From an uncultured Gemmatimonadaceae bacterium (lineage in GTDB: Bacteria > Gemmatimonadota > Gemmatimonadetes > Gemmatimonadales > Gemmatimonadaceae): 64,000 nucleotides of DNA. Position 1 is the stretch's first letter. Each line of letters opens with the position of its first letter. This document shows positions 9,596 through 24,001 of this stretch, piece by piece. A program made the translations under genes and the position numbers. The stretch covers positions 736,001 to 800,000 of the forward strand of contig CAVUDW010000002.1 of the NCBI GenBank assembly GCA_963740355.1, written 5' to 3'. The notes under the pieces were generated by a model, which was not told the origin of the DNA, did not search any database, and was given only the letters and a program-made list of their open reading frames with translations.

Positions 9596-12202
9596 TTAGC
9601 TGTTGCCTTCGTTGTTGCCGTTCGTCGTGCGATTCGCTGTCAGGGAATCAGCGGCAGCGGTCTTGGAGCGTTCGCTGGAAGTGAGGATGGCATTGTAGAC
9701 GAGCTTGAACGTGCCCCAGCTCTGGCCGCGATACTGAGGACGGAAGCCGAACATCACCACGCGACCGGCGCCGACGGTGATGTCGACCGCGGCGGCCTTG
9801 CCGGCAATCGCTTCGCCGCCGGCCAGGTAGCCGCTCATGAGGATGTTGCCGACGTCGGTCGGATAGCGCAGCGGCACCTCGACGCGGGCATCCTGGGCCA
9901 CGTCGAAGGCGGTCGAATTGGTGAAGTACACCGGCACCGTGTCGGGCATGCCCATCGTGAGGCGGCCCGGCGAGGCGATCGTGCGCAGGATCGAACCCGG
10001 TGCCACGATGTTGGCGCCTGCCGGTGCGCCGGTGGAATCGTCACGCGCGCGCCCGTCGCGCGCCGGGGCACGGGACTGCGGCGAGATACGTCGAACCGGC
10101 AGGCCCGGCACGGCTTCGAGCGCTACTTCGCTGCCCTTGTCGAACGTCATCAGCACGCCGCCGGCCGCCACGAATTCACCGATCGCCTTCAACCCTTCGG
10201 CGCCAAGCCCACCGGCGTATTCCGCTGGTGCCGACCGCGCGGCGAGGCCGTCCTTCGCCTCGCGCAACGAGATATCGGCGATGATCAGCACGTCGAACGC
10301 GGCGCGCAGGTTGCCCGCCTTGAGCAGGCTGTCGGTCACGTTCTTGTACGGTACGCCCTGCTGGTCGAACAACCACCGCGTCCAGCCTTCATCCATGCTG
10401 GCCGTCCACGGCTTGTAGAGCGCCACACGCGTAGGCTTGAGCTTGGTGCGCTCGCCAGTCGCCGACGGCAGCGTCGCCGCACCGCACCAACCGCCGTCGG
10501 GTGAGAAGCCGCGCGCGAATGAACCCGGTACGGTCACCGACGATGTTTCGCGGCTGCGCGACATGTCGACTCGTACCCCTTTCTGCAGCGCGGCGAAGGC
10601 CGTCGGGAAAGCCCGCGAGTCGCGCAGGTCGAGCGTGACGTTGCCGCTCCCCGAGAGCCCACACTTCGCGGCACCAGGCGCGGCCGCCGTGGCCGGCTGC
10701 GCACTCTTCTCGAGGCGCACCGTGACGCCCATCTGGTAGGGCAGTGTCCATCCTGCAACGTCGTACGGCCGATCACCGGCGCTCGCCGGCCACTTCTGTT
10801 CCTCGAACAGGTCGCGCACGTGAGCCGCGTACGGCTGGTCGAGCGGCACGATCCAGGAGCCACCCGAGACGCGAACCGCTTCGTCATTACCGGTCACTTC
10901 GACACCGCCACGCCGCAGCACCTGCACCAGCGCATAGGCGGCGGCAGGGTCATGCTGCTTCGACTCGATCACGTACTGCTGGCCAACGCCGTTCGCGACC
11001 TGGGTCCGGGCGACCTGCACCATCGATCGCACGATGTCGCCGCGCATCTCGGACGCCATCTGCACCAGTGAAATCGCGGCGATCTGCTCGTAGTCCATGA
11101 TGTCGCGCAGGCGCCAGGTGCCGCCCTTCCATGGACTCGGGTAATTCACACGCGGTTCGTTCTTGAGGCCGCGCGGATTGGCGGTGACCTCCGCCGGCGT
11201 GAGCGTGATCGGCGTCGCGATTCTCACGCTGGCCGCTTCCGTCAACAGGCCGATCATGTTGTGGCGCGTGGGAGTGGAGCGCGCACCACCGTTCCACCAG
11301 AGATCGTAGGTGATGCCATCACCTACGCCGGTCTTGCCCGCCTGCTGCAACGCCCACGACATCCGCTGCCCGACGAGGTTGATCCCGCGAACGATGCGAA
11401 CATCGACGTTCTGGTTGATCGGGTCGATGTGTGGTGGCACCGTCAGGCGCATTCCGTTGCTGCCCTGCTGGTGCACGTCGTAGAACACCTGCGGGAAGTA
11501 CTTCCCGTAGAGCGCCGAGCTGATGTTGCGGCTCTCCTTCTGCGTCACCATGTACCAGTCACGATTGTTGTCGTGACCCACGTACTCGTGGTACAGCCAC
11601 GGCATCGGGCCACCTTCGTACGGCGTGCCGAGTCCCTTCTTGTACCAGTCCACCACCATCTGCATGCCATCGGGGTTTGCCGAGGGCACCAGTGCGATCA
11701 CCACGTTCTTCATCGACCGCTGCAAGCTGTCGGTGGTGGCGAGCGCGTAGGCGAACTCCATCGCCATCTGGCTCGAGCCGATTTCGCTGCTGTGGAGGTT
11801 GCAGTTGATCCAGAGCACCACCGGCTGCGTGGCGACCAGCGAGTCCTCGGCAGCGGCGCTCAGCGTGCGCGGATCGGAGAGGCGGCGTTCCGCGGCGAGG
11901 ATCGCATCGAGTCGCCGAATGTTCTCCGGGGTCGAGATCGCGGCCACGATCATCGGCCGCCCCTGCGTCGTGGTTCCGATCGTGTCGATCTTGACGCTGG
12001 GGGAGCGCTGCGCGAGAGTGCCAAAGTACCGAAGGATCTGCGGCCAGTCGGCCAGCGTGCGATCGGCACCAACCGGGATTCCGAGCACGTCGCTCGGCGT
12101 AGGAATCGCGCCTTGGGCTGTGGCGCGCGAGAGGGGCGCCGCGAGCAGGAGCGCGGGGCAGAGCAGGCGGAGTACGCCGGCGAGCGGGCGACCAGAAGTC
12201 AT
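9596..12202 (-). CDS. Secreted M14-family zinc carboxypeptidase with C-terminal glutamine-amidotransferase-like domain
   Basis: Signal peptide from ATG 12202; zinc motif NLHSSE, NPDG, DNNRD, YDVHQQG; C-terminal SMDEGWTRW and FGFRPQYRGQ. Confidence 0.9.
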   Translation of the reverse strand: MTSGRPLAGVLRLLCPALLLAAPLSRATAQGAIPTPSDVLGIPVGADRTLADWPQILRYFGTLAQRSPSVKIDTIGTTTQGRPMIVAAISTPENIRRLDAILAAERRLSDPRTLSAAAEDSLVATQPVVLWINCNLHSSEIGSSQMAMEFAYALATTDSLQRSMKNVVIALVPSANPDGMQMVVDWYKKGLGTPYEGGPMPWLYHEYVGHDNNRDWYMVTQKESRNISSALYGKYFPQVFYDVHQQGSNGMRLTVPPHIDPINQNVDVRIVRGINLVGQRMSWALQQAGKTGVGDGITYDLWWNGGARSTPTRHNMIGLLTEAASVRIATPITLTPAEVTANPRGLKNEPRVNYPSPWKGGTWRLRDIMDYEQIAAISLVQMASEMRGDIVRSMVQVARTQVANGVGQQYVIESKQHDPAAAYALVQVLRRGGVEVTGNDEAVRVSGGSWIVPLDQPYAAHVRDLFEEQKWPASAGDRPYDVAGWTLPYQMGVTVRLEKSAQPATAAAPGAAKCGLSGSGNVTLDLRDSRAFPTAFAALQKGVRVDMSRSRETSSVTVPGSFARGFSPDGGWCGAATLPSATGERTKLKPTRVALYKPWTASMDEGWTRWLFDQQGVPYKNVTDSLLKAGNLRAAFDVLIIADISLREAKDGLAARSAPAEYAGGLGAEGLKAIGEFVAAGGVLMTFDKGSEVALEAVPGLPVRRISPQSRAPARDGRARDDSTGAPAGANIVAPGSILRTIASPGRLTMGMPDTVPVYFTNSTAFDVAQDARVEVPLRYPTDVGNILMSGYLAGGEAIAGKAAAVDITVGAGRVVMFGFRPQYRGQSWGTFKLVYNAILTSSERSKTAAADSLTANRTTNGNNEGNS

Positions 12203-12272
12203 GGGAGTGCGTGACACGGTGAGAGAAACACGGCCGTCGTGCGACGGTCGAACGCTACCCCGGGAGTCGGTC

Positions 12273-12655
12273 ATGTCACATCCTGCCCGCGACAACAGCC
12301 CGTTGCCGCCACCCATGCCGCCGAAGGAATTACGCCTCCGGACCAACGTCCACGGGACGGTTTTCGCTGCCCGCACGCTGGTGATCGAGCGGCTGCAGGC
12401 GGGGGAGCCGCTGCTGCTGGTGCCCGACCCGCCGCAGCCAGATGAGCCCTATGCAGTGTGGGTCCACGTGGCCGGCGGCGACGTGCTCGGGCCACCTCCC
12501 GGTGCAGATCGCGGCCTGGCTGGCGCCGTGGATGCTCGCTGGGGGACGGTGTCGCGCCACGGTCACGCGACGTCGGCCCAGCGGATGCGCCGAGCTGGAG
12601 CCGCATCGAGATCGAGCTCGAACGCTCGCTGCCGACGCTCGACCGCAGCTCCTGA
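12273..12655 (+). CDS. Stand-alone HIRAN-domain protein (two apparent frameshifts ~12490, ~12568)
   Basis: Joined frames: RTNVHGTVF...LQAGEPLLLVPDP...PYAVWVHVAGGDVLG/HLPVQIAAWLAPWMLAGGRCRATV/...WSRIEIELE; GGGAG RBS; span 383 = 381+2. Confidence 0.65.
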
Positions 12656-12781: not shown

Positions 12782-13496
12782 CTACCGACGCGTGGCTGGC
12801 TTCTTGGCGGCTGGTGCGGCCGACTTGGTGGCGCCGCCACCGAGGCCAATGGCGAGACCGGCGCGCACCACCACGTTCTGGCCGGTGCCTGACGTCCCGC
12901 TGAACGTGCCGGCGTCGCTGCCGCCGACCTTCGCTGTCACGTCACCGAAGCGGATCACGCCGACCGTGGCACCGAGGTCGAGGTTCACCCGCGGCGGAGA
13001 GCTTGGTCAGCACACCGCCACCGACGTTCCCCTGAAATCCGCTGGCACTGATCTCGAGGTTCGCGCGCTGTTGCACGGCGAGGGACACGTCCGCGTTGCT
13101 GCGTGCGACACGAGCCTGACCCACTTCGCCGAGGTCGGCCGACTGCCGCAGGTAGGCCAGCCGTGCCGACATGTACGGCGCGAACTTCGCGCTGCCGATG
13201 TCGAACACTCGGCGCGGTTCGAAGAAGACACCGGAGAGTGCGACGTTGAAGCCATTCGCGTCCTTCAGTGCATGTGATGAATACTGGTAGCCAACGCCAT
13301 ACGACCAGAGGCTCGGGGTGACGCGCACCTGCACTTCGCCACCGGCACCGTTGTCGAGACCATCGTACGCGCTGCCGAAGACACCGACATAGAGTCCCGA
13401 CGCCTGGATCGACCAGCGTTGTGCCGACTGGGCAGCGAGTGGCGTGGTGAAACACGCAGCGGCGACGAGAGCCGTGAGTGTGAAGCTGTGACGCAT
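12782..13496 (-). CDS. Outer-membrane beta-barrel protein (one apparent frameshift ~12996)
   Basis: GAGGT RBS, signal peptide ending LAAQ, amphipathic beta-strands (WSYGVGYQY, FAPYMSARLAY); continues as PRVNLDLGATVG...VVVRAGLAIGL after removing one base. Confidence 0.75.
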
Positions 13497-13786
13497 GGGA
13501 AATACCTCGCGGAGGGAAACGGGGCGCCCAGAGTGGCGCGGCGACTCGCGTGGCATGATGCCTCGCATTCCTTCACGCGCAGTTGTCGACCGTTTCGGCT
13601 CATCGATGTGTGGCGAGCGGCAATTCGAGGCGGCGGTGCACGGGCATCGTGATGACCGTTCGCCCCTGCGCCACAAGGATTTTCCGGATGATGAGCCGTT
13701 TTTCCGCGGATCTGCGCGTGAGTGGATGAGCGGGACAGATCGCCCGTTCGAGACGCCCCCCAGCATCCACGCACTCCGAGGTCATC

Positions 13787-15549
13787 ATGGAGAAACTGCT
13801 TCTCCGCCATCTGAAGGGATCCAAGGCCGGCGAGACCGAGACCTTTGCCCTCAGCGCGTATCCCGATCTGCTCATCGGTCGTGATCCTGCGTCCGCCGTC
13901 CGTTTCGATCCCGCGCAGGATGACCTCGTCGGTCGTCAGCATGCCCGCATCACGCGCGACGGTCCTGACGCCACCACGTTCACGCTGTCGGATCTCGATA
14001 GCCGGAACGGCACCTTCCTCAACAAGCAGCGCGTCAGTGGCAAGGTCGTGATCCGCCCTGGCGACATCGTGCAGCTCGGCGCCGGCGGACCGGAGTTCGA
14101 GTTCGATGTCGACCCGCGTCCGGCGCCCGATGTGAAGGCCACGCGCCTCGGCATCGTGCCGTCGGCCAGCAGCGCCGATGCGACGCGCATGTCGGTCGCG
14201 GCCAACGCCACGGCACCATCCAAGGCACCCTCCACCACACCGGCGTCGTCTGGCCCAGTTCCGGGCAGCATCGGCAAGGCGACGGTGGAGCGCATGATCA
14301 CCGAGACGCAGAAGAAGTCGCAGTCGATGAACTACCTGATGGGTGGTGCCGTCGCACTCGTGGCGGTCGCCGGTATCGGCTGGGCGATGACGCGGCCGAA
14401 GCCGATCGATCAGGGGAGCGTCGTCGCCAGCGCCGTTGGCGCGGCGACCGCGGCTGCGGCGAAGGACGACAGTGTGCGTCGTGCTGCGGAAGCTAAGGGT
14501 GCAGCCGTCTCCGCACCCGAGATCGCTGCCAGGTACGGCCCGGCGGTGGTGCAGATCTACTTCAGCTGGAAGCTCGAATACAGCGGGCAGCCGGTGTTCC
14601 ATCGCTACATCGAGAACGCCTACAAGGCCAAGAGCGGGAAGGTGATGCAGATCATCCCTGGTGGGCCGCAGTACATCCCGACGTACATCGCCGTCAACGA
14701 AAACCAGATCGAACCGGCACTCACGCTGGCGCAGGGCCAGGGTCGTCCGATCGGTGTCACTGGCAGTGGTTCAGGCTTCGTGGTGTCGTCCGATGGTTTC
14801 ATCCTCACCAATCGCCACGTCGGCGCGAACTGGATGGCGCCGTATTCCTTCCAGCAGTCCGACATGGGCGTGCTGATCGGAAACCAGGGCGGCATCATGG
14901 TGAAGGATGACGGTACGCCGGCGATCACCGATCCACCGGTGGGCTGGATTCCGTCAGAATCCAAGCAGGCGGGCCCGAAAGGCATCATCGGCTCGTTCGC
15001 CGGTCGCCACGAATACCTGAAGGTCGGCTTCCAGAACAACGTGAACTACATCGATGCCGGCCCGGTCACGACCTCGCCGCGCGCCGATGTGGCGCTGCTC
15101 TCGGTGAAGGTGCCGAAGCCGCTCACGGCCCTGACACTGAACGACAACTACACCTCGGTGCGCCAGGGCGAAGGGGTCACGGTGATGGGGTATCCCGGTG
15201 TCTCGGATGTGACCTACGCGGTGGTGAAGTCGAATGACACGTTCAACCAGGAAAACCAGGCGCGCGTGGTTCCCGAGGTCACGCTGACCACGGGCACGAT
15301 TGCCAAGGTGACCAAGGCCGGCGACGAGAATGCCACCGGCCCGATGAAGTTCTACACGCCGAGTGGTGACCGTTTCCAGCTCAACATCAATACGACGGGG
15401 CCGGCAACAGCGGCGGACCGCTGTTCGATCCGCAGGGTCGCGTGATCGGCATCTTCTTCGCCGGTCGATCGGCCGACGTGTCGGTGTCGTTCGCCGTCCC
15501 GATCAAGTACGGCATGGAACTGATGAACGTCGGCCCAACCGCGCGCTGA
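13787..15549 (+). CDS. FHA domain - TM - trypsin-like serine protease (one apparent base deletion ~15400)
   Basis: FHA motifs IGRD, VGRQHARI, DLDSRNGTFLN; TM; protease GSGFVVSSDGFILTNRHV, ADVALL; restoring one base yields GNSGGPLFD...VIGI...FAVPI to stop at 15549. Confidence 0.88.
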
Positions 15550-15563
15550 CGGAGAGACGGCAC

Positions 15564-17711
15564 ATGTCCACCGGCACCCCGACCAGGACCGCGATCGGTC
15601 CGTACAGAATCACCGGCTTTCTGGGTGCCGGTGGCATGGGCATGGTGTGGCGCGCCAGCCACCGGGACCTCGGTCGCGACGTCGCGATCAAGCGTCTCTC
15701 GGAATCGGCCAGCGAAGGCATCCCGCTGGAGCGCTTCCGCAACGAGGCGCGGCTGCACGGCACGTTGAACCACCCGCGCATCGCACAGCTCTACGACTTC
15801 ATCGAGGATGACGGTGCGCCGTGCATCGTGATGGAGTACGTCGCCGGCCCCACGATCGAGGAGCAGCTGCGCAGCGGGCCGATTCCGCTGCACACTGCCA
15901 TCACGATCCTCGAGATGGTGGCGGACGCCGTCGGGTACCTGCACCAGCGCGGCATCATTCACCGCGACATCAAGCCGTCGAACGTGAAGCTGCGGCCCGA
16001 CGGCTCGCCGGTGCTGCTCGACTTCGGCATCGCGCGCGCCGATGGCGATCCGCGCCTGACACGGACGGGCATGATCATCGGCTCGCCGCACACCATCGCA
16101 CCAGAACAGTTCGAGGGTCGCCCGCTGGACGCACGTGCCGACATCTGGGCCTTGGGCGTACTGTTCTACGAGATGGTCACCGGTCGACCGCCGTTCACCG
16201 GCGAGTCGGTGGCTGCACTCGCGAGTGTCATCCTGCACACGACACCGGTGGCCCCGAGCCATCGGCTGAAGACGCTGCCGCCGCGGGTCGATGCGCTGGT
16301 GGCGCATTGCCTCGAGCGCGACGTCTCGCGTCGCTTCCAGACGACCAGCGAATTGATCGATGCGCTGCGTGAACTGCGGCGCGTGACCCCTCTCACGGGT
16401 GAATCGCCGGCGGTGACCGGCTTCGCAACCGTTTCCAAGGCACGGCGGGCGCTGCTCGGCGCTGCGGGCCTGCTGCTCGTCGCAGTTGGCGCCTACGCGA
16501 TGAATCGCCAGGATGGCGATGTCGTTCTGCCCGCGAACGACACGACGCATGTGGCACCGATCTCACCTGTCGTGCCGCCAGGCCCAGTCGCACCCGTTCC
16601 CGGGATGCTCACCACGCGCATCAGCATCGTCGATGGCACCGCGGATGTGTTGATCGACGGAAAGCAGGTCGGTACGACGCCGTACGTTCACTCCGCGCCG
16701 GCCGGAACCAGCGTCACTCTCACGTTGCGCCGCGCCGGCTTCCACGATGAAACGGTCACCTTCATCGTCAGCGACAACCAACGGGAGTACACCCTCGTGA
16801 TGCAGCGAGACGCATCCGCGCCCGTCAGCCCGGCGCTGCTCGGTTTCTTTGGCTGGTTTCGTCGCCGTCGGCCCCAGCCAACCCCTGTTGCAGCCGCCGC
16901 CGCAGCCGGCGTGACCGGCGAACGTGTCGCCGCCGCGCCGCTGCGTTTCCGTGCCGCAGCGCAGACTGATGTGGGCTGCGTTCGCGATGGCAACGAAGAT
17001 GCCGTGCGCGTTGTCGACCTGCCCGACGGCGCGATCGTCGCCACGCTCTGCGACGGGATGGGCGGGCACGCGGCGGGGGAGGTGGCATCTGACCTGGCCG
17101 TGCGTACGATCATCGAGCACGCGGCTGAACTCGATTCGTCCGAGGCCCTCGTCACCGTCGTCGATGCCGCCAATCGCCGGATCCGGAAAGCCATGGCGCG
17201 TGATCGTGCCTTGCACGGCATGGGTACCACCTGCGTCGTGCTGCGTCTGCATGGGCAGTACGCGCTCTGCGCCCACGTCGGTGACAGCCGTGCGTATCTG
17301 GTTCGGGATGGCGGGATCTATCGGCTCACGGAGGATCATTCCCACGTGCGCGACCTGGTGCGTGACGGCACCCTCGCCGATCAGGATGCGCGTCATCATC
17401 CCGACAAGAATGTGATCCTCCGCGCCTTGGGGCCGGCCGAGCATGTGGAGGCCACGACCTGGACGGCACCGCTTCAGCTCCGGTCAGGGGACCGCTTCCT
17501 GCTTTCGTCCGATGGTCTCCACGATCTCGCCGACGATCAGGATTTCCTGCCGGCGCTCGCGCATGTCGATCCGGAGCGCGCGTGTGCCGACCTGATCGCC
17601 CTCGCCCGTGATCGCGGCGCACCCGACAACGTCACCGTCTGTATCGTTGACGTGCTCCCGACCACCACCGCCAATGTCCCTGAAACACGCGTGATCGAGG
17701 TTCCGGCATGA
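15564..17711 (+). CDS. Ser/Thr protein kinase - TM - PEGA - PP2C phosphatase fusion
   Basis: Kinase LGAGGMGMV, VAIK, HRDIKPSN, DFGIA, APE; TM; PEGA (VLIDGKQVGTTP); PP2C TDVGCVRDGNED, LCDGMGGHAAGEVAS, HVGDSRAY, LTEDHS, LSSDGL, DNVT. Confidence 0.9.
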   Translation: MSTGTPTRTAIGPYRITGFLGAGGMGMVWRASHRDLGRDVAIKRLSESASEGIPLERFRNEARLHGTLNHPRIAQLYDFIEDDGAPCIVMEYVAGPTIEEQLRSGPIPLHTAITILEMVADAVGYLHQRGIIHRDIKPSNVKLRPDGSPVLLDFGIARADGDPRLTRTGMIIGSPHTIAPEQFEGRPLDARADIWALGVLFYEMVTGRPPFTGESVAALASVILHTTPVAPSHRLKTLPPRVDALVAHCLERDVSRRFQTTSELIDALRELRRVTPLTGESPAVTGFATVSKARRALLGAAGLLLVAVGAYAMNRQDGDVVLPANDTTHVAPISPVVPPGPVAPVPGMLTTRISIVDGTADVLIDGKQVGTTPYVHSAPAGTSVTLTLRRAGFHDETVTFIVSDNQREYTLVMQRDASAPVSPALLGFFGWFRRRRPQPTPVAAAAAAGVTGERVAAAPLRFRAAAQTDVGCVRDGNEDAVRVVDLPDGAIVATLCDGMGGHAAGEVASDLAVRTIIEHAAELDSSEALVTVVDAANRRIRKAMARDRALHGMGTTCVVLRLHGQYALCAHVGDSRAYLVRDGGIYRLTEDHSHVRDLVRDGTLADQDARHHPDKNVILRALGPAEHVEATTWTAPLQLRSGDRFLLSSDGLHDLADDQDFLPALAHVDPERACADLIALARDRGAPDNVTVCIVDVLPTTTANVPETRVIEVPA

Positions 17712-19372
17712 TTGGCAGCCAACTCGGCAACTATCGCGTTATCTCGCGGCTCGGTGAAGGCGGCATGGGCACGGTGTATCGTGCCACCGACACCATGCTG
17801 GACCGCGATGTCGCACTGAAGGTGCTGCGTCCCGAACTGGCGCGGCAGGCGGCGCTCGTCGAACGCTTCCGCGCCGAAGCGGTGGCCCTGGCCCGGCTGC
17901 GCCACGAGCACATCGCGGCCTTGTACGGGCTCGACCGGCAGGGCGACGAACTGGTGATGGTGATGGAGTACGTGAGTGGGGAGACGCTCGAATCGCGCCT
18001 TGCTCGCCAGGGCCCGATGAACTGGCACGAGGCGATTCCGATCATGCGCGGTGTATTGGCTGCGCTCGGCCACGCCCACGTGCGCGGCGTGGTGCATCGC
18101 GACATCAAGCCGGCCAACGTGATGATCGACAGCGATGGTACGGTGAAGGTGATGGACTTCGGCATCGCACGCCTGATGGGGGAAAACCGTCAGACGCGTG
18201 CGGGTGTCGCCATCGGTACGCCGAGCTACATGGCGCCGGAACAGCTGCGCGGCGAGGATGTTGACGGCCGTACCGACCTCTACGCCGCCGGCGCGCTGCT
18301 GTTCGAGTTGCTCACCGGCCGGGTCGCGTTCGAAGCCGACAGCGACTACTCGCTGATGATGCAGCAGTTGAACGAGCCACCCGCTGCACCAAGCACCATC
18401 ACGCCCGGGGTGCCGCGCGCGCTGGACGCCGCCGTCTCGCGGGCGATGGCGAAGCGGCCGACGCAGCGCTTTGCCACGGCCACCGATTTTTCCCGCGCGC
18501 TCGACGAGATCACGCCCGACACCTTCTCGGTCGAGCCGATCCGTGACGCCGCAGTTGCGGTGGTCTCGAAGGCGCCGCGCGACTGGCGCGTGTACGTGAT
18601 TGCCGCCTGTGTGATGGTGGCCGCCGGTCTCGGTGTGGCAGCAATGCGCGCTGACCCGACGAATACCACCGGCACGGTCGCCTCCAGCAGCGACTCGGCG
18701 CATGTCGCGGACTCCATTGCTGCGGCTGCGCTGGCGGTGCGGTCGACGCAATCCGGCGAACCGTCGCGCGAGCCTGTCTCGCAGATCGCATCGGCTGGTG
18801 GCGCGGGCCTTCGCGAAGTGGTCGATCCCACTACCGTGGCGCCGTCATCACCCTCCCCATCACGCACGCCGTCCTCGCCGACACCAGCGCCCACACGTCA
18901 ACAGACCCCCGTGCGCACACCAGTGACGACGACACCAGCGTCGCCGTCCTCGCCAGTGCGCACCCCGGAAGTGACGCAACCGGTGGTGACGGCCACGAAG
19001 GAAGCGGAGCCTGTGCGCGAGTCAGACGCCGGCGGCAGTGCGACTCGGCGCGTGCAGGAACTCGCCGAGCGGTGTGCCGCCAGCATTTCGTCGAACAATG
19101 CCAGCGCCGCAGGCAGGCTGCTGCGCGGTGACACCGACGGCCTGATGTCCGCCATTGCCGACGGTCGCATCACGAGTGCCTCGGCGGGAAGCGTGAGTGT
19201 CGATGCGGGTGACGGCCGTGCGGAAGGGCGATTCACTGTGCGCATCGCATTCCGGACCGCGTTCGGCGGCAACAAGACGGCGACAGCCCGGCTGACGGCC
19301 GAGGTGTCGCGCTCCAACGACGGCTGGCATGCCATCGGCTGTCCAGTGGAGAGCAGCGGCGGTGTGAAGTAG
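17708..19372 (+). CDS. Transmembrane Ser/Thr protein kinase with C-terminal extracytoplasmic domain
   Basis: LGEGGMGTV, VALK, HRDIKPAN, DFGIA, GTPSYMAPEQ; TM; Pro/Ser/Thr linker; ATGA overlap with upstream gene. Confidence 0.93.
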   Translation: MIGSQLGNYRVISRLGEGGMGTVYRATDTMLDRDVALKVLRPELARQAALVERFRAEAVALARLRHEHIAALYGLDRQGDELVMVMEYVSGETLESRLARQGPMNWHEAIPIMRGVLAALGHAHVRGVVHRDIKPANVMIDSDGTVKVMDFGIARLMGENRQTRAGVAIGTPSYMAPEQLRGEDVDGRTDLYAAGALLFELLTGRVAFEADSDYSLMMQQLNEPPAAPSTITPGVPRALDAAVSRAMAKRPTQRFATATDFSRALDEITPDTFSVEPIRDAAVAVVSKAPRDWRVYVIAACVMVAAGLGVAAMRADPTNTTGTVASSSDSAHVADSIAAAALAVRSTQSGEPSREPVSQIASAGGAGLREVVDPTTVAPSSPSPSRTPSSPTPAPTRQQTPVRTPVTTTPASPSSPVRTPEVTQPVVTATKEAEPVRESDAGGSATRRVQELAERCAASISSNNASAAGRLLRGDTDGLMSAIADGRITSASAGSVSVDAGDGRAEGRFTVRIAFRTAFGGNKTATARLTAEVSRSNDGWHAIGCPVESSGGVK

Positions 19373-19528
19373 GTGCCAAGTCGGTGTGAATCCCCTTCCT
19401 GACAGGTACGTATATTCAGGACACACCGCGCCACTTGTCGCACTCGCCGGTCCGATTTTTCTTCGGGCAGCGATCCGGGTGGCTCGATCCCGCAGATTTT
19501 CGTCCGACACCGACCAACGATCTCGACC

Positions 19529-20755
19529 ATGTTTTCCCGCGTTGTGTGCTCTGCCGTCGACAGGACGAGGTCCCGTCGCGCCCGCACAGACGCGAATCGG
19601 TTGCTGCTCGCGTCCCTGACATTTCTCGCGGCCGGCCCGCTGGCGGCGCAGGCCCAGACGCGCGCTGCGGCGGCCGCTGCACTCGCGCGCGCCGGTGATG
19701 CAGTCGTCACCATCGTGGCGTATCGCGAGGGCAGCGCGGACGTGGTCAGTGGCACCGGCGTTCGCGTGACTGATGGTCGAGTGATCACCGCGCTCCGGCA
19801 CCTGCGCGGCGCGTCGCGGGTCGAGGTGTTCGGCGCAAACGGCGACCTGCTCGCCACCGCCACCACGCTCGATCAGGCCGAAGTGAAGCTGGACCTGGCC
19901 GTGTTGCCGCCAATCGCGGAGCCCGGCGGTCGCATCACGCTTGCCCGGCGATCAGCCGTTCTTGCACAGAAGGTGAGTCTGCTGGGGCCGAAGAAGGGGA
20001 CCGTCCGCTTCGTGGCACCGCGCACGGTCACCCATGTCGAACCAGACGATGCGGGCCGGCCAGTGCTCCGCCTTGGTGCGCAGATTTCGGGAAGTGCGGT
20101 GGGTTCTCCGGTGGTCAACGTGCGTAGCGAATTGATCGGAATCGCCCTCGGCACGATTCCCGGCAAGGATGATGGCGACGTGGCGGTGGACGTGAGTGCC
20201 ATCCGCGAGCTCCTGGCACGCCCCGTTGCGCGTCTCGGTTTTCCGACCCGTGATGGTACTATCGCCGCCGCACGTGCACCCGTCGATCCCAAGGCGGTCC
20301 CCGGCGCGGCCCGCCCCGCCGAGACGAACGCGCGGCCGCGTGCGAGCATCTTCCCTGAACGCTATGGGGCGCCGATCAGCGCCGACACGGCGGGGCCGTT
20401 TGCCGTAGAACTGTTCGGGTGTGCGCGCCTCGAGTCGCGGCAGAAGGTGTATTGCTACCTCCGTATCACGAACCTGGCCCGGGGTGGGACATTCGAGGTC
20501 AATGGCGGCGATCTCGCGGATAGCACCCGGCGAAAGTCGCGGTCTGCCGAAAACCTGATGCTCGGCGAGACCACCCAGCGCGTGGCCGGATGGCGGACCA
20601 AAGCCGCCGTACCGCTGCGCGAACTGGAGTCGGCGCGGGTGGCGCTGGAGTTCACCCCACCGGAGCGCGACAGTGACGCGGCGCGCCTGATGCTCGACGT
20701 CGCCGGTGAGAGAACCTTGTGGTTTGGACCGTTCGTCCTGCAGAGAGCGCCCTGA
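19529..20755 (+). CDS. Secreted trypsin-like protein, probably catalytically inactive, with C-terminal beta-rich domain
   Basis: Signal-like segment; trypsin scaffold (SGTGV, VITALRHL, DLAVL, GSPVVN..ELIGI) but SAVGS in place of GNSGG. Confidence 0.7.
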   Translation: MFSRVVCSAVDRTRSRRARTDANRLLLASLTFLAAGPLAAQAQTRAAAAAALARAGDAVVTIVAYREGSADVVSGTGVRVTDGRVITALRHLRGASRVEVFGANGDLLATATTLDQAEVKLDLAVLPPIAEPGGRITLARRSAVLAQKVSLLGPKKGTVRFVAPRTVTHVEPDDAGRPVLRLGAQISGSAVGSPVVNVRSELIGIALGTIPGKDDGDVAVDVSAIRELLARPVARLGFPTRDGTIAAARAPVDPKAVPGAARPAETNARPRASIFPERYGAPISADTAGPFAVELFGCARLESRQKVYCYLRITNLARGGTFEVNGGDLADSTRRKSRSAENLMLGETTQRVAGWRTKAAVPLRELESARVALEFTPPERDSDAARLMLDVAGERTLWFGPFVLQRAP

Positions 20756-20850
20756 TCCGCCATATTGGAGGCGGTATCGGGTGCCGCGGCGTTTGGGTCG
20801 CGGGGCGCCGATGAGGATCGAATTCCTGAGCTACGGGGTCTGAGCGTCGC

Positions 20851-22737
20851 ATGATCGGTGAACGCATCGGCCACCTCAGAGTCATCGCGTCCATTGGCGT
20901 CGGTGGCATGGGTGCCGTTTGGCATGCCGTTGACGAATTGCTGGATCGCCACGTCGCGCTCAAGGTCATTCGCCCTGAGCTGATGTCGAGGCCCGGCCTC
21001 GCCGAGCGTTTCCGCTCCGAGGCGATCGTCCTCGCGCGCCTCCAGCATCCGTGCATCGCCGCGCTCTACGGCCTCGAGAAGCGCGGCGACGAATTCGTGA
21101 TGGTGATGGAGTACGTCGACGGCCAGACGTTGGACGCAAAGCTCGCGACGCAGGGCGCTCTGCCCTGGCCTGAGGCCACGCGCATCACGCGCGCCGTGCT
21201 CGATGCGCTCGACCATGCCCACGAAAGCGGCGTCATTCACCGCGACATCAAGCCGGCCAACGTCATGATCACCCGCGCCGGTCGCGTGAAGGTGATGGAC
21301 TTTGGTATCGCACGACTGGTGGGCGCCCAGCGCCAGACGCGCACCGGTGCCGCTGTCGGCACGCCGTCATACATGTCGCCCGAGCAGTTGCTGGGGCAGG
21401 AAGTGGATGGCCGCGCCGACGTGTATGCGGTTGGCACGCTGCTGTACGAGCTCACCACCGGTCACCTCCCGTTTGAAGTCGAGGGTGACTACCTGCGCAT
21501 GATCGCGCAGCTGCAGCAGGTGCCCAGCGCCCCGAGTACGCACAATGCCGAGCTGCCGAGCGGTCTCGACCTGATCGTCGCGCGTGCGCTGCAGAAGGAG
21601 CCAGACGATCGTTTTGCGACATCGGGTGACTTCCGCGACGCGCTCGAGGAATTGGAGCGCGAGCATGGCGTGCTGCGACCATACGGCACGCCGGCGACAG
21701 GTTCTGCGTCGGTGCCCGGTGCCGCGTCGCCGCGCACATCGTCCGGTGCCACCCCCGCCATCTCGTCGCAGCCGACACCCGCATTCAACCCCAACTCCTC
21801 GGCGCTGTTGACGCCTGTGGAGTCGGCGATGAGTGTCACGCCGGTGCCGTTTTCGATTGAGCCTGCGGGCGCAACGCCGATCGACAACGACCTGCCACCG
21901 CTGTTCCCGCCTGCCGCTGCATCGATGCCAGAGCCCGCGCCATCGCGCCCGGGTGCGGTCGCGTCGCCGACGCCTGAGTTCGTGGTTGCGACGCCCGAGC
22001 CCGCGAAGCGCAGCGCGTTGCCGCGTGCAATGATGGCGATAGGTGCCATTGCCGTTGTTGCCGTCGCTGGCGTGCTCCTGACGCGGAGCTTGACGGAGCG
22101 TGAAAATCAGGCAGCCGCGTCGGCAACCGACAGCGCGGCGGCACCGGCTCCGCCTGTCACTGCAGCGCCAGTCGCGCCGGTCGCGCCTCCTCCGCAAGTC
22201 GTCACGGCAGCACCCGTCACGACCGATTCAGTCGATAGCGCGGCGGTGAAGAAGGCATTGGCCGATTCGCTGCGGCTCGTTCGTCGTGCGGCCCGTGATT
22301 CGGCCAAGAGACTCGCCGACTCGATTGCCGCCGCGTCAGGAGCTGCGGTCTTCGCGCTGCCAGGTAGCGGCACGCCGTCGAATGCCGATCTCGATCAGGC
22401 GCGCCGGGCGGGTCGTCAGGCGGCCGAGGAATGTGTCGCGGTGCTTGGCTCGCACGACATGGGTCGGATCTCTGCCCTCTTCGGCGGTGAACAGACGAAG
22501 AACGTCTTCCGCATCGCGAAAGAAGGGAAGCTCGACGTGAATGGCCCGCTCCGCCCGGCGGTCGAGCCGGAGACGGATCGTGCGACCACCCGATTCACGG
22601 CGCTGCTCACCTGGAAGAGCGGCAACAACGAAGATCGAACCGCAAGCGCGACGCTCCGCGCGATCACCGAGCGCAAGGGCACGGCGTGGACCACCAGGAA
22701 ATGCCTGATCGATAACGACGGCGGCGCACGGTTCTAG
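20851..22737 (+). CDS. Transmembrane Ser/Thr protein kinase, paralog of 17708-19372
   Basis: IGVGGMGAV, HRDIKPAN, DFGIA, GTPSYMSPEQ; Pro-rich linker, TM, related C-terminal domain. Confidence 0.93.
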   Translation: MIGERIGHLRVIASIGVGGMGAVWHAVDELLDRHVALKVIRPELMSRPGLAERFRSEAIVLARLQHPCIAALYGLEKRGDEFVMVMEYVDGQTLDAKLATQGALPWPEATRITRAVLDALDHAHESGVIHRDIKPANVMITRAGRVKVMDFGIARLVGAQRQTRTGAAVGTPSYMSPEQLLGQEVDGRADVYAVGTLLYELTTGHLPFEVEGDYLRMIAQLQQVPSAPSTHNAELPSGLDLIVARALQKEPDDRFATSGDFRDALEELEREHGVLRPYGTPATGSASVPGAASPRTSSGATPAISSQPTPAFNPNSSALLTPVESAMSVTPVPFSIEPAGATPIDNDLPPLFPPAAASMPEPAPSRPGAVASPTPEFVVATPEPAKRSALPRAMMAIGAIAVVAVAGVLLTRSLTERENQAAASATDSAAAPAPPVTAAPVAPVAPPPQVVTAAPVTTDSVDSAAVKKALADSLRLVRRAARDSAKRLADSIAAASGAAVFALPGSGTPSNADLDQARRAGRQAAEECVAVLGSHDMGRISALFGGEQTKNVFRIAKEGKLDVNGPLRPAVEPETDRATTRFTALLTWKSGNNEDRTASATLRAITERKGTAWTTRKCLIDNDGGARF

Positions 22738-22789
22738 GACCGTACGCCGCCGTTGATGTCTGCCTGTCGGTTCTTGCGCCGCGGTCTCG

Positions 22790-24001
22790 TCAGGCGCCGC
22801 GGATTCCCAGCTTCTCGCCGACCTTCACGAACGCCCGCACCGCGAATTCCAGATCCTCGCGGGTGTGCGCGGACGATACCTGGCAGCGGACACGCGCCTG
22901 TCCCTGCGGCACCACCGGGAAGCCGAAGCCGGTCACGAAGATCCCTTCCGCCAGCAATGCCTGGCTCATCGCGATGGCGGTCGACGTCTCACCGACGATG
23001 ATCGGCACGATCGGCGTCTCACCCGGGAGCGGCGAAAATCCTGCCTCCGTGATCGCCTTGCGGAACCAGTCGGCATTCTCGTGCAGCCGTGTCACCCGCT
23101 CCGGCTGTGCCTCGATCACACGCACCGCTTCCAGCGCGCTGCAGGCAATCGTGGGGGCCAGCGCGTTCGAGAAGAGCTGCGGGCGGCTCGACTGAATCAG
23201 GGTGTCACAGAGCGCCGCGCTGCCAGCCACGAAGCCACCAGCCGCGCCGCCGAGTGCCTTGCCGAGGGTGCTGGTGATGATGTCCACCTCACCCAGCACA
23301 CCGCAGTGTTCCGCGGTGCCCCGTCCGGTCTTTCCCATCACGCCGGTCGCGTGACTGTCGTCCATGACGAGGATGGAATTCGTGTCGCGCGCAATCTGCA
23401 GGAGCTCCGGGAGCTTGGCCACGCTGCCTTCCATGCTGAACACGCCATCGGTCCAGATCACGCGTCGCCGTGCACCGGCGTTGGCCGCCAGCTTCTCGCG
23501 CAGGTCGTCGAGGTCGCCGTGCTTGTAGACGCCAGTGGTGCACTTCGTGATCGACTTCGCGAGCCGGATGCTGTCGATGATGCTGGCGTGGTTCAGCGCG
23601 TCGCTGACCACGAAATCACCCTCCTTCACGATGCAGTGCGTCAGGCCTTCGTTCGCGGTCCAGGCCGAGACGTAGCTCATGGCGGCCTCGGTGCCGACGA
23701 ATCGCGCCAGCGCCGCTTCCAGCTCGCGGTGGATCGTGAAGGTGCCGCAGATGAAACGGACGGAGCCGGTGCCGGCTCCGAATTGCTTCAACCCGTCGAT
23801 GCCCGCCTGCACCACGCTCGGCTCGTCGCAGAGGCCGAGGTAGTTGTTCGACGACAGAATGAGGACCTCACCGTGGCCCTCCATCTGTACCCGGGCTGAC
23901 TGCGGGCTGCTGAGGTAGTTCAGCGTCTTGTAGACGCGATCCGCCTTAAGCTGATCCAGGTTCGCCTGCAGTTCGGCGGTGAACGCGTGATTGAGAGACA
24001 T
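22790..24001 (-). CDS. kbl: Glycine C-acetyltransferase (2-amino-3-ketobutyrate CoA ligase)
   Basis: SSNNYLGL, SVRFICGT, SDALNHASIID, TDGVFSMEG, DDSHATG, TLGKALGGA, FPVVPQGQARVR; in an operon with tdh. Confidence 0.92.
   Translation of the reverse strand: MSLNHAFTAELQANLDQLKADRVYKTLNYLSSPQSARVQMEGHGEVLILSSNNYLGLCDEPSVVQAGIDGLKQFGAGTGSVRFICGTFTIHRELEAALARFVGTEAAMSYVSAWTANEGLTHCIVKEGDFVVSDALNHASIIDSIRLAKSITKCTTGVYKHGDLDDLREKLAANAGARRRVIWTDGVFSMEGSVAKLPELLQIARDTNSILVMDDSHATGVMGKTGRGTAEHCGVLGEVDIITSTLGKALGGAAGGFVAGSAALCDTLIQSSRPQLFSNALAPTIACSALEAVRVIEAQPERVTRLHENADWFRKAITEAGFSPLPGETPIVPIIVGETSTAIAMSQALLAEGIFVTGFGFPVVPQGQARVRCQVSSAHTREDLEFAVRAFVKVGEKLGIRGA

Follow-up and report, generated by a model that had tools for sequence, protein, structure and literature searches.

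The five-gene locus and its domains

Five co-oriented open reading frames, g1–g5, were found on the forward strand at positions 13787–22737 of the window, which is the whole 64,000-nucleotide stretch of Gemmatimonadaceae DNA analysed here (Table 1). They carry the domains named in the original prediction, with the PEGA match of g2 lying below its cutoff, and the first three are as tightly coupled as had been proposed: with its frame restored, the g1 stop is separated by 14 nt from the g2 ATG at 15564, and the last 4 nt of g2 are shared with g3. Longer gaps precede g4 (156 nt) and g5 (95 nt). A scan of positions 12800–23200 returned no promoter-like sites and three terminator-like sites, all of them on the reverse strand (shuffles gave an expectation of 4.7); the upstream ORF, g0, gave nothing usable from Pfam at E ≤ 10. 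A single hydrophobic segment follows the FHA domain of g1 and each of the kinase domains in hydropathy plots. The kinases of the window (Pfam 162–180 bits) show their catalytic motifs directly in the sequence, and in alignments the Gly loop, VAIK Lys, HRD, DFG and APE are invariant columns in all kinases, which identifies them as Hanks-type.

Table 1. Features of the g1–g5 locus, in positions of the window, with the evidence used to place them.
Feature	Positions	Strand	Evidence
g1: FHA – linker – TM – HtrA-like PDZ-less protease, predicted periplasmic	13787..15549	+	Pfam (Trypsin_2 38.2 bits); three-frame translation; intact orthologues; contigs; AF2 + Foldseek
FHA domain of g1, aa 29–98	13871..14080	+	PF00498, 60.8 bits (gathering score 20.7)
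Cytoplasmic linker of g1, three conserved Thr islands	14141..14284	+	Candidate phospho-acceptors or FHA ligands
Transmembrane segment of g1, aa 184–202	14336..14392	+	Hydropathy peak 1.81
Frameshift site in g1	15395..15400	+	Frame switch in three-frame translation; contig alignment
g2: Hanks kinase – TM – PEGA-like loop – short hydrophobic segment – PP2C	15564..17711	+	Pfam (Pkinase 162.1, PP2C_2 69.7, PP2C 47.2 bits); AF2
PEGA-like beta-sandwich of g2, aa about 352–412, predicted periplasmic	16617..16799	+	PF08308 sub-cutoff; AF2
About 15 hydrophobic residues then RRRR in g2, proposed second membrane pass	16818..16865	+	Sequence
g3: receptor Hanks kinase – TM – ectodomain of about 110 aa	17708..19372	+	Pfam (Pkinase 180.2 bits); TM aa 295–313
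g4: secreted pseudo-protease, Trypsin_2 fold + C-terminal domain without a family	19529..20755	+	Pfam (Trypsin_2 33.7 bits); hhalign
g5: receptor Hanks kinase paralogous to g3, found together with g4	20851..22737	+	Pfam (Pkinase 175.4 bits)

The FHA domain of g1 scores well above its Pfam gathering threshold, and its residues R32, R50, H52, S72 and N74 are kept in 243–247 of the 247 members of the family. At the position of Ser49, the canonical Ser of the SxxH motif, the window's clade has Gly, whereas 90 of 134 representatives have Ser. Among solved structures the domain is closest to GarA, and it also resembles FhaB and OdhI. It is followed by a linker which is variable and of low pLDDT except for three threonines, T119, T133 and T166 in window numbering (T119, T131 and T164 in that of P0001), conserved in 244, 233 and 239 of 247 members, respectively. 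An AF2 model of a g1 orthologue places a long helix across residues 162–199.

The Trypsin_2 match of g1 covers only profile positions 1–108 of 144, and the protease triad is kept across the family (H342 243/247, D431 246/247, S539 244/247). Foldseek searches with the AF2 model returned AlgW, HtrA1, DegP and DegS as top matches (E about 1e-11), and a profile search of the PDB matched the protease to HtrA1 at 7e-19. The family shares the chymotrypsin fold and His-Asp-Ser triad of S1C proteases; no PDZ domain was detected in g1 or the nine orthologues scanned, the protein ends about 40 residues past the catalytic Ser, and the NCBIfam models score below cutoff (degP_htrA_DO 52.9 vs 416.2, HtrA 41.9 vs 470, DegS 25.6 vs 422.95).

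The annotated g1 ORF stops at 15445, as it lacks one base near 15396–15400, shortly upstream of the catalytic Ser codon. The GNSGGP motif and the remainder of the protease domain continue in another frame up to a stop at 15547–15549. All seven congeneric orthologues are intact and encode the tail in frame, and each of three metagenome contigs crossing the site has one extra base, placed at 15395, 15396 or 15399 in contigs X4, X1 and X3. Programmed −1 frameshifting was rejected because orthologues and contigs simply carry the extra base. The frameshift probably reflects either an error of assembly or a lesion private to the strain, the former being the most likely cause, and the window copy of g1 may be a true pseudogene.

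The g2 ORF of 782 aa is overlong; a kinase start at ATG 15564 gives a protein of 715 aa. The metal-binding motifs of PP2C (NED, DGMGG, GDSR, SDG and DN) can be read in its C-terminal part, which belongs to the PP2C family and scores 217.3 with NCBIfam Stp1_PP2C, just under the cutoff of 230. PEGA (PF08308) reaches 18.1 bits in the window copy vs a cutoff of 20.8, and was matched in 12 of 48 orthologues at E ≤ 0.01 (best 3.6e-6). The AF2 model of a 77%-identical orthologue contains a beta-sandwich with strands at 352–415 (pLDDT 83–94). The putative PEGA identity is therefore carried at the level of the family together with the predicted fold, and not by the window copy alone. A complex prediction for the periplasmic protease domain and the PEGA loop of the kinase-PP2C fusion, run without controls, gave no answer (score 0.00) and speaks neither for nor against contact. 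The hydrophobic stretch and RRRR which follow the loop may return PP2C to the cytoplasm; we word this second pass as a proposal because AF2 predicts no helix there and gives a low pLDDT.

Fusion of the kinase-PEGA protein to PP2C was seen only in the five Gemmatimonadota sequences among 48, the two being separate genes elsewhere. PP2C–Pkinase fusion proteins have been catalogued, mainly in Pseudomonadota, as possible dual-activity enzymes (PMC12088040). They resemble g2 in having a kinase and PP2C on one polypeptide; the passages of that catalogue that treat them describe architectures only, and mention neither a PEGA loop nor linkage to an FHA-protease gene.

The g3 kinase is translationally coupled to g2. 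Its ectodomain gave nothing usable from Pfam at E ≤ 10, and an Atlas search returned NTF2-like families (Cds6_C, DUF4440) at only 0.83–0.85, hence we treat an NTF2-like fold as a weak lead.

A conserved three-gene cassette

The FHA-protease family comprises 380 clusters at 50% identity (E ≤ 1e-30). We took 71 family loci, of which 43 had at least 4.3 kb of downstream sequence and 28 were shorter. The 43 loci compared for conserved order were drawn from Gemmatimonadota, Acidobacteriota, Bacteroidota and Pseudomonadota. Conservation of gene order, on which the original prediction had been staked beforehand, was found for g1–g3 across phyla: FHA-protease, PP2C and kinase follow one another on the same strand in 42 of the 43 longer loci, and 24 of the 28 shorter ones start in cassette order. 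A kinase-TM-PEGA gene precedes PP2C in 34 of the 42 ordered loci, with the remaining eight having PP2C and kinase only. The receptor kinase represented here by g3 is the universal third gene; its ectodomain is highly variable while the rest of the cassette is constant. The conserved unit is thus three genes, g1–g3, and not five.

The flanks of the cassette vary between phyla and consist mostly of housekeeping genes (11 diverse loci, 126 ORFs), with integrase genes near two of the 11 (L034 and L058). An M14 carboxypeptidase gene is among the neighbours of the cassette. Within the genus its distribution is patchy; of the 19 congeners searched only 7 carry it, hence it is dispensable. Among cultured carriers is Gemmatimonas aurantiaca, whose orthologue is 47% identical. 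We found no description of the FHA-TM-protease architecture in full-text literature searches, in keeping with the original statement that no named system was known to have such a composition. Furthermore, the relevant parts of PMC7159879 and PMC12204202 describe no FHA-protease.

Threonine motifs and relation to known systems

The motif T-[RK]-[LIVM] is strongly enriched in two segments, the juxtamembrane linker of third-gene kinases and the linker of the protease itself. In third-gene kinases it occurs 52 times per 3622 juxtamembrane residues vs 13 per 18892 elsewhere, and 30 of 41 have at least one copy in the linker, compared to about 0.1 per linker in shuffles. The protease family shows 147 occurrences per 7161 linker residues vs 107 per 70686 elsewhere. 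No enrichment was seen in the PEGA-kinase linker (4 per 1545). Judging from this pattern, the motif threonines are candidate phospho-sites for the FHA domain. In the window's genus the third-gene kinase has no motif threonine, with EP[IVLM]RD in its place in the window and 7/7 orthologues. Given this loss and the Gly at the canonical FHA Ser position of the clade, docking there may work differently, or only via the linker of the protease itself.

Several known systems share parts of the cassette. Like DegS of the E. coli sigma-E envelope stress response and AlgW, the protease has an N-terminal anchor and a periplasmic HtrA-fold domain with a His-Asp-Ser triad. It differs from both in the absence of PDZ, in the cytoplasmic FHA domain and Thr linker before the anchor, in large insertions in the protease domain, and in that no RseA/RseP-type partners lie near the cassette.

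The T6SS threonine phosphorylation pathway (PpkA/PppA/Fha1) likewise uses a receptor kinase together with a PP2C and an FHA protein as a post-translational switch. We rejected this pathway, as the original prediction had done from the lack of adjacent secretion genes: no secretion-system genes were found among the flanking window genes scanned with Pfam, and no T6SS families among the window neighbours or the 126 ORFs of the 11 diverse loci. In the cassette, moreover, the FHA protein is itself a membrane-spanning effector.

FHA switches such as GarA and OdhI, and the FHA-pThr oligomerisation of the Chk2/Rad53 type, likewise combine on one polypeptide an FHA domain and a conserved phospho-acceptor Thr in a disordered segment; in the cassette, by contrast, these are joined to a protease via a membrane helix. 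By analogy, the FHA domain of the cassette protease may recognise its own linker.

The actinobacterial cluster fhaA-fhaB(fipA)-pstP-rodA-pbpA-pknA-pknB similarly groups FHA readers with a single PP2C and two receptor Hanks kinases in one operon, FhaB combining an FHA domain and a membrane anchor. A phosphorylated juxtamembrane domain acts there as an FHA docking site; in M. tuberculosis the FHA reader FhaA binds to that of PknB (PMC12077195). In contrast, the cassette lacks rodA, pbpA and PASTA, and its FHA protein has an extracytoplasmic protease domain. The NCBIfam model for FhaB gives 47.2 vs a cutoff of 125, and PknB_PASTA_kin is below cutoff and matches the kinase domain only.

Proposed phosphorylation-gated proteolysis and its alternatives

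We tentatively read g1–g3, with a little less than even confidence, as one copy of a widespread, uncharacterised inner-membrane phospho-threonine cassette in which cytoplasmic phosphorylation gates a PDZ-less, DegS-like protease. The minimal cassette consists of a cytoplasmic FHA domain joined by one membrane pass to a periplasmic PDZ-less HtrA/DegS-like protease, a PP2C, and a receptor Hanks kinase with T-R-[LIVM] repeats in its juxtamembrane linker. In most copies there is also a second kinase, with a predicted periplasmic PEGA domain; it is fused to the phosphatase in Gemmatimonadota, where writer and eraser would be joined in one in-out-in membrane protein. Kinases switched through their ectodomains would phosphorylate the T-R-[LIVM] threonines of the third-gene kinase and of the protease linker; FHA binding to these phospho-threonines would dock or oligomerise the protease and so gate periplasmic proteolysis, with PP2C resetting the system. 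Such a cassette would be analogous to DegS with the activating peptide shifted to the cytoplasmic side.

Control would accordingly run from the cytoplasm outward. It is possible, and we put it forward with reserve, that the cassette works as an inside-out device in which receptor kinases write and PP2C erases T-R-[LIVM] phosphorylation, while FHA reads it and switches the periplasmic protease on, the signal passing from FHA to protease via the single membrane helix. The writer-reader-eraser circuit with an extracytoplasmic protease, as originally predicted, holds for g1–g3 in so far as gene order and the catalytic and pThr-binding residues are conserved; it does not extend to g4–g5, and g1 is frameshifted in the assembly.

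The direction of control could also be the reverse, with the periplasmic protease upstream of the kinases, for example trimming or shedding their ectodomains (PEGA and the variable third-gene domain), and FHA-pThr binding a mere feedback tether that holds it near its kinase substrates. Protease and ectodomains do share the periplasm, their genes are co-conserved, and a highly variable third-gene ectodomain in a constant cassette is what would be expected of a sensor or substrate part. We consider this unlikely, since eight of 42 cassettes have no PEGA kinase and the conserved Thr islands in the cytoplasmic linker of the protease point to regulation of the protease itself.

Doubtful, too, is a role for the FHA-protease as simply one kinase substrate or adaptor, like mycobacterial FhaB/FipA, with an HtrA-like domain performing constitutive envelope quality control independently of phosphorylation. 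HtrA proteases are known as general quality-control enzymes, and the likeness of the FHA domain to FhaB, GarA and OdhI is consistent with such a role. However, the fusion of FHA to protease and the operon order are strictly kept across phyla and the PDZ regulatory domain is consistently absent, which suggests that regulation was moved rather than lost.

The original prediction had described all five genes as one module. In such a module the dead g4 might modulate the live g1, with g5 serving as a third kinase for input. That g4 is a dead trypsin-like protein was borne out, the nucleophile Ser being replaced by Val191 in hhalign alignments and by Val or Ala in four orthologues. The g5 kinase is indeed a paralogue of g3 (kinase domains 60% identical, C-terminal domains 24% identical, E = 1e-7), and the order g1–g5 is kept in four congeners (L014, L015, L017 and L019). 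Neither the C-terminal domain of g4 nor the ectodomain of g5 gave anything usable from Pfam at E ≤ 10. A single module is nevertheless highly improbable: g4–g5 occur without g1–g3 in two congeners (G016 and G005) and on a different contig from g1–g3 in a third (G009), g5 adjoins g4 in L100 and L101, both of which lack g1–g3, just 5 of 121 genomes of the family yielded g4, the window's own included, no g4 homologue was detected in the 71 cassette loci of other lineages, and the gaps before g4 and g5 stand against the coupling of g1–g3. An ORF between the kinases of L026 was tried as g4 and rejected as it shows no real similarity, so the additional ORF and kinase of Blastocatellia cassettes are not the g4–g5 pair. 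We conclude that g4–g5 are a separate genus-level pair which adjoins the conserved cassette by chance.

A role in anti-phage defence or conflict, with a protease that a kinase would trigger to kill the cell or arrest it, is barely credible despite the patchiness of the cassette within the genus, the integrase genes near two of 11 loci and the high scores of the kinases against PADLOC PD-T4-6 models (e.g. 326 bits) and MADS6, because the PADLOC matches are limited to the generic kinase domain, all NCBIfam matches are below cutoff (MAD6 139–186 vs 460), the protease lies on the periplasmic side, the flanking genes are mostly housekeeping ones, and neither other defence genes nor PD-T4-6/MADS6 partner genes were seen beside the cassette.

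Phosphorylation-gated proteolysis thus remains our preferred, tentative reading. It can be tested directly, since the T-R-[LIVM] motif is shared by kinase and protease, the linker threonines are conserved and one carrier, Gemmatimonas aurantiaca, is in culture. What is known of Hanks kinases, PP2C phosphatases and FHA readers in bacteria concerns mostly the regulation of cytoplasmic targets or of secretion machines. In the cassette the reader is built into an extracytoplasmic protease, an arrangement kept together in no fewer than four major phyla of bacteria from soil, sediment and wastewater. Should the protease prove to be gated by phosphorylation, this would be a new route by which cytoplasmic or kinase-sensed information reaches the envelope, and a new mode of HtrA regulation.

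Gene layout and the reading frame of g1

An ORF scan of the window (G+C ~66%; genome assembly of 5.45 Mb in 5 contigs) gave five co-oriented ORFs, g1–g5, with the domains tabulated below, and hydropathy placed a single membrane segment behind each kinase domain and behind the g1 FHA domain. The Trypsin_2 match of g1, the HtrA-like protease gene, ends at profile position 108/144 because a frame switch moves the catalytic motif out of the ORF; three-frame translation recovered GNSGGP and the remainder of the domain in another frame, and a single base is lacking near the switch. Programmed frameshifting was rejected, as the g1 orthologues found in 7/19 same-genus genomes (71–81% identity) all align with the tail in the same frame (7/7), and each short-read metagenome contig crossing the site, in three runs (X1 record 2, X3 record 18, X4 record 26), carries one extra base. 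X1 records 1, 4 and 5 are otherwise identical to the window. The frameshift is therefore attributed to an error in the assembly or to a lesion private to the strain, in the window copy probably the former.

Once the frame is corrected, the end of g1 lies 14 nt upstream of the true ATG start of g2 (kinase-PEGA-PP2C fusion), which overlaps g3 (receptor kinase) by 4 nt, in line with the tight coupling described for these three genes, hereafter the cassette. g4 and g5 follow gaps of 156 and 95 nt, respectively. Pfam identified an M19 dipeptidase, an M14 carboxypeptidase, an aminotransferase, a PALP enzyme and a dehydrogenase as window neighbours, together with g0 (no family), and no secretion genes among them. 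The divergent g0, which matched no Pfam or NCBIfam family, is kept upstream of g1 in congeners (56–66% identity), and in three other loci of Gemmatimonadota it is found 3–6 kb upstream. The M14-like gene (~900 aa) lies near the cassette in the window’s genus, and three loci of Bryobacterales (L039, L043, L048) have a 35% identical homologue immediately upstream of the cassette, an association that may be recurrent across two phyla.

Features of the window and of homologous loci, with Pfam scores for g1–g5
Feature	Sequence	Position (strand)	Remark
M14 carboxypeptidase-like gene	window	9596-12376 (-)	
g0	window	12942-13766 (-)	
g1–g5	window	13787-22737 (+)	
g1	window		FHA 60.8 bits; Trypsin_2 38.2 bits
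g1 lacking base	window	near 15396-15400	
g1 ORF stop	window	15445	
g1 stop in other frame	window	15547-15549	
g2	window	ATG 15564	Pkinase 162.1 bits; PP2C_2 69.7 bits
g3	window		Pkinase 180.2 bits
EP[IVLM]RD	window	18530-18560	g3 aa about 275-285; orthologues L013-L019
g4	window		Trypsin_2 33.7 bits
g5	window		Pkinase 175.4 bits
ECF sigma/TPR kinases	L021	4298-9912	Gemmatimonadales
ECF sigma/TPR kinases	L070	2442-5797	Rhodothermales
Integrase	L034	8333-9517	
Integrase	L058	4867-6222	
366-378-aa protein and kinase	L026	15556-18390	Blastocatellia-type
366-378-aa protein and kinase	L032	15469-18249	Blastocatellia-type
g3 remnant	L101	8863-9288	genome G005

The cassette across phyla and the g4–g5 pair

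In a neighbourhood scan limited to one genome per species, 80 of the 403 relatives obtained were kept; 71 of them are genuine members of the family, and nine are distant trypsins that lack the module. The family loci fall in Acidobacteriota (n = 32), Bacteroidota (n = 22), Pseudomonadota (n = 6), Gemmatimonadota (n = 5), Rhodothermales/Rubrivirga (n = 3) and single MAGs labelled Actinomycetota, Clostridia and Chthonomonadaceae (n = 3). Mapping of downstream gene order by tblastn of domains showed a same-strand PP2C then kinase in 42 of the 43 loci for which 4.3 kb or more of downstream sequence is available, with a kinase bearing a PEGA-like tail ahead of the PP2C in 34 of these and the PP2C-kinase pair alone in eight; in the remaining locus (L075) the second kinase was not found. 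Among 28 shorter loci, 24 have the same initial order, three have <300 nt downstream, and L077 showed no domain matches in its 3.7 kb. The core was borne out by Pfam analysis of 126 ORFs in 11 diverse loci, whose flanking genes are unrelated (LeuRS, Paa genes, integrases, ECF sigma with TPR kinases) and include no secretion systems. As the order is kept across phyla, the loss of gene order that would speak against the original prediction was clearly not seen for g1–g3.

In two loci, TPR-containing Ser/Thr kinases and an ECF sigma gene form a pair a short way upstream of the cassette, and two others have phage-type integrase genes within 2–5 kb upstream. Behind the cassette, Blastocatellia-type loci encode a further kinase and an unannotated protein, which was rejected as a g4 counterpart since it is not homologous to g4.

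The original prediction of a five-gene phospho-signalling and proteolysis module stands for its domains, co-orientation and the conservation of g1–g3, but not for its unity. The g1–g5 order is kept in four loci (L014, L015, L017, L019), while genomes G016 and G005 have M14-...-g4-g5-aminotransferase without g1–g3, and in G009 g1–g3 and g4 are on different contigs. g4 was found in 5/121 family genomes, the window’s own included, and in 0/71 cassette loci. g1–g3 thus form a three-gene cassette, and g4–g5 a separate two-gene unit beside it. G005 retains a decayed, out-of-frame remnant of the g3 C-terminus (45% identity) between g4 and M14, which points to a g1–g3 deletion in that species.

With a signal-peptide-like N-terminus and a Trypsin_2 domain, g4 was rightly described as a dead trypsin-like protein, the nucleophile position being Val191 (Val or Ala in four orthologues); its C-terminal half (~150 aa) matched no Pfam or NCBIfam family. 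g5 is paralogous to g3, with 60% identity between the kinase domains and 24% over the last 110 aa (E=1e-7).

The protease family and its linker threonines

Family searches used P0001, a naturally intact g1 orthologue. Of 8000 candidates scored in a word-index search, 1050 were relatives at E<=1e-5. FHA and Trypsin_2 occur together in nearly all of the best 120; the only names given to the matches listed are “serine protease Do” and “trypsin-like peptidase domain-containing protein”, and a Gemmatimonas aurantiaca orthologue (47% identity) is among them. An exhaustive search gave 8026 representatives at E<=1e-3, of which 380 reached E<=1e-30; full-length matches extend to identities as low as 35%. 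The AF2 model (pLDDT 79.8) comprises the FHA domain, a disordered linker (116–161), a long helix running through the membrane segment, and a protease domain predicted with confidence; the model’s top structural matches are AlgW, HtrA1, DegP and DegS (E about 1e-11). A PDB profile search matched HtrA1 (7e-19) for the protease and GarA for the FHA part; every NCBIfam match of the protease was far under cutoff, and Pfam found no PDZ domain in g1 or the scanned orthologues. Across 247 full-length members, conservation is near complete in the triad (H342, 243/247; D431, 246/247; S539, 244/247) and the FHA domain (R32, 247/247; R50, 243/247; H52, 244/247; S72, 246/247; N74, 247/247). The canonical Ser of SxxH is Ser in 90/134 representatives and Gly in 43/134, including the window’s clade. 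Two Candidatus Accumulibacter loci (L079, L080) encode a 705-aa protease with two tandem FHA domains.

The cytoplasmic linker is variable and disordered, yet retains T119 (244/247), T131 (233/247) and T164 (239/247), the first two in T-R-[LIVM] contexts. The same motif, as K/P-x-T-R-L/I/V/M-G/A and often in two or three copies, occurs in the juxtamembrane linker of the third-gene kinase. T[RK][LIVM] was counted 52 times in 3622 residues of this linker against 13 in 18892 elsewhere in the same proteins, and 147 times in 7161 residues of the protease-family linker against 107 in 70686 elsewhere; the PEGA-kinase linker is not enriched (4 in 1545). At least one copy is present in 30/41 third-gene kinases (shuffled expectation ~0.1 per linker). 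The discussion of PMC12077195 cites PknB-FhaA as an established case in which a phosphorylated juxtamembrane domain docks an FHA protein. Given this precedent and the common motif, we propose these threonines as candidate kinase sites and FHA ligands, which the kinases would write and the FHA domain would read. Against simple docking through the kinase motif, EP[IVLM]RD replaces it in the third-gene kinase of the window’s genus, the threonine being gone in the window and 7/7 orthologues, and g5 lacks the T-R motif. This genus-wide substitution resembles a conserved form of the docking motif that cannot be phosphorylated.

The kinase fusion and relation to known systems

Kinase-TM-PEGA and PP2C share a single ORF in 5/48 cases, all Gemmatimonadota (window, L014, L021, L024, L030); elsewhere the kinase stops after the PEGA-like domain and PP2C is a separate ~280–335-aa protein starting with a short aromatic-basic motif. 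PEGA was matched in 12/48 orthologues and scored 18.1 in g2 (cutoff 20.8). AF2 modelled the kinase, membrane helix, beta-sandwich (352–415) and PP2C confidently; the joint, ~15 hydrophobic residues then RRRR or RRK, has low confidence and no helix, and its proposed role in returning PP2C to the cytoplasm, giving an in-out-in topology, is therefore kept as putative.

The cassette shares its STK/PP2C/FHA triad with mycobacterial fhaAB-pstP-pknAB and the T6SS threonine phosphorylation pathway, but lacks the rodA, pbpA and PASTA genes of the former and the T6SS genes of the latter; the absence of T6SS genes from the window flanks and 11 loci agrees with its predicted distinction from PpkA/PppA/Fha. 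DegS and AlgW are likewise membrane-anchored HtrA proteases, whereas the cassette protease has no PDZ domain. With every equivalog score also below cutoff, the cassette belongs to neither group. PADLOC matches to PD-T4-6 were of the generic kinase-domain kind. A full-text search of the main texts of accessible papers turned up neither an FHA-anchored protease nor the cassette operon, and PMC12088040 catalogues PP2C-kinase fusions as architectures only. The cassette is real, conserved and uncharacterised; as to mechanism, we infer that it works like a merger of the STK/PP2C/FHA triad with a membrane-anchored HtrA protease.
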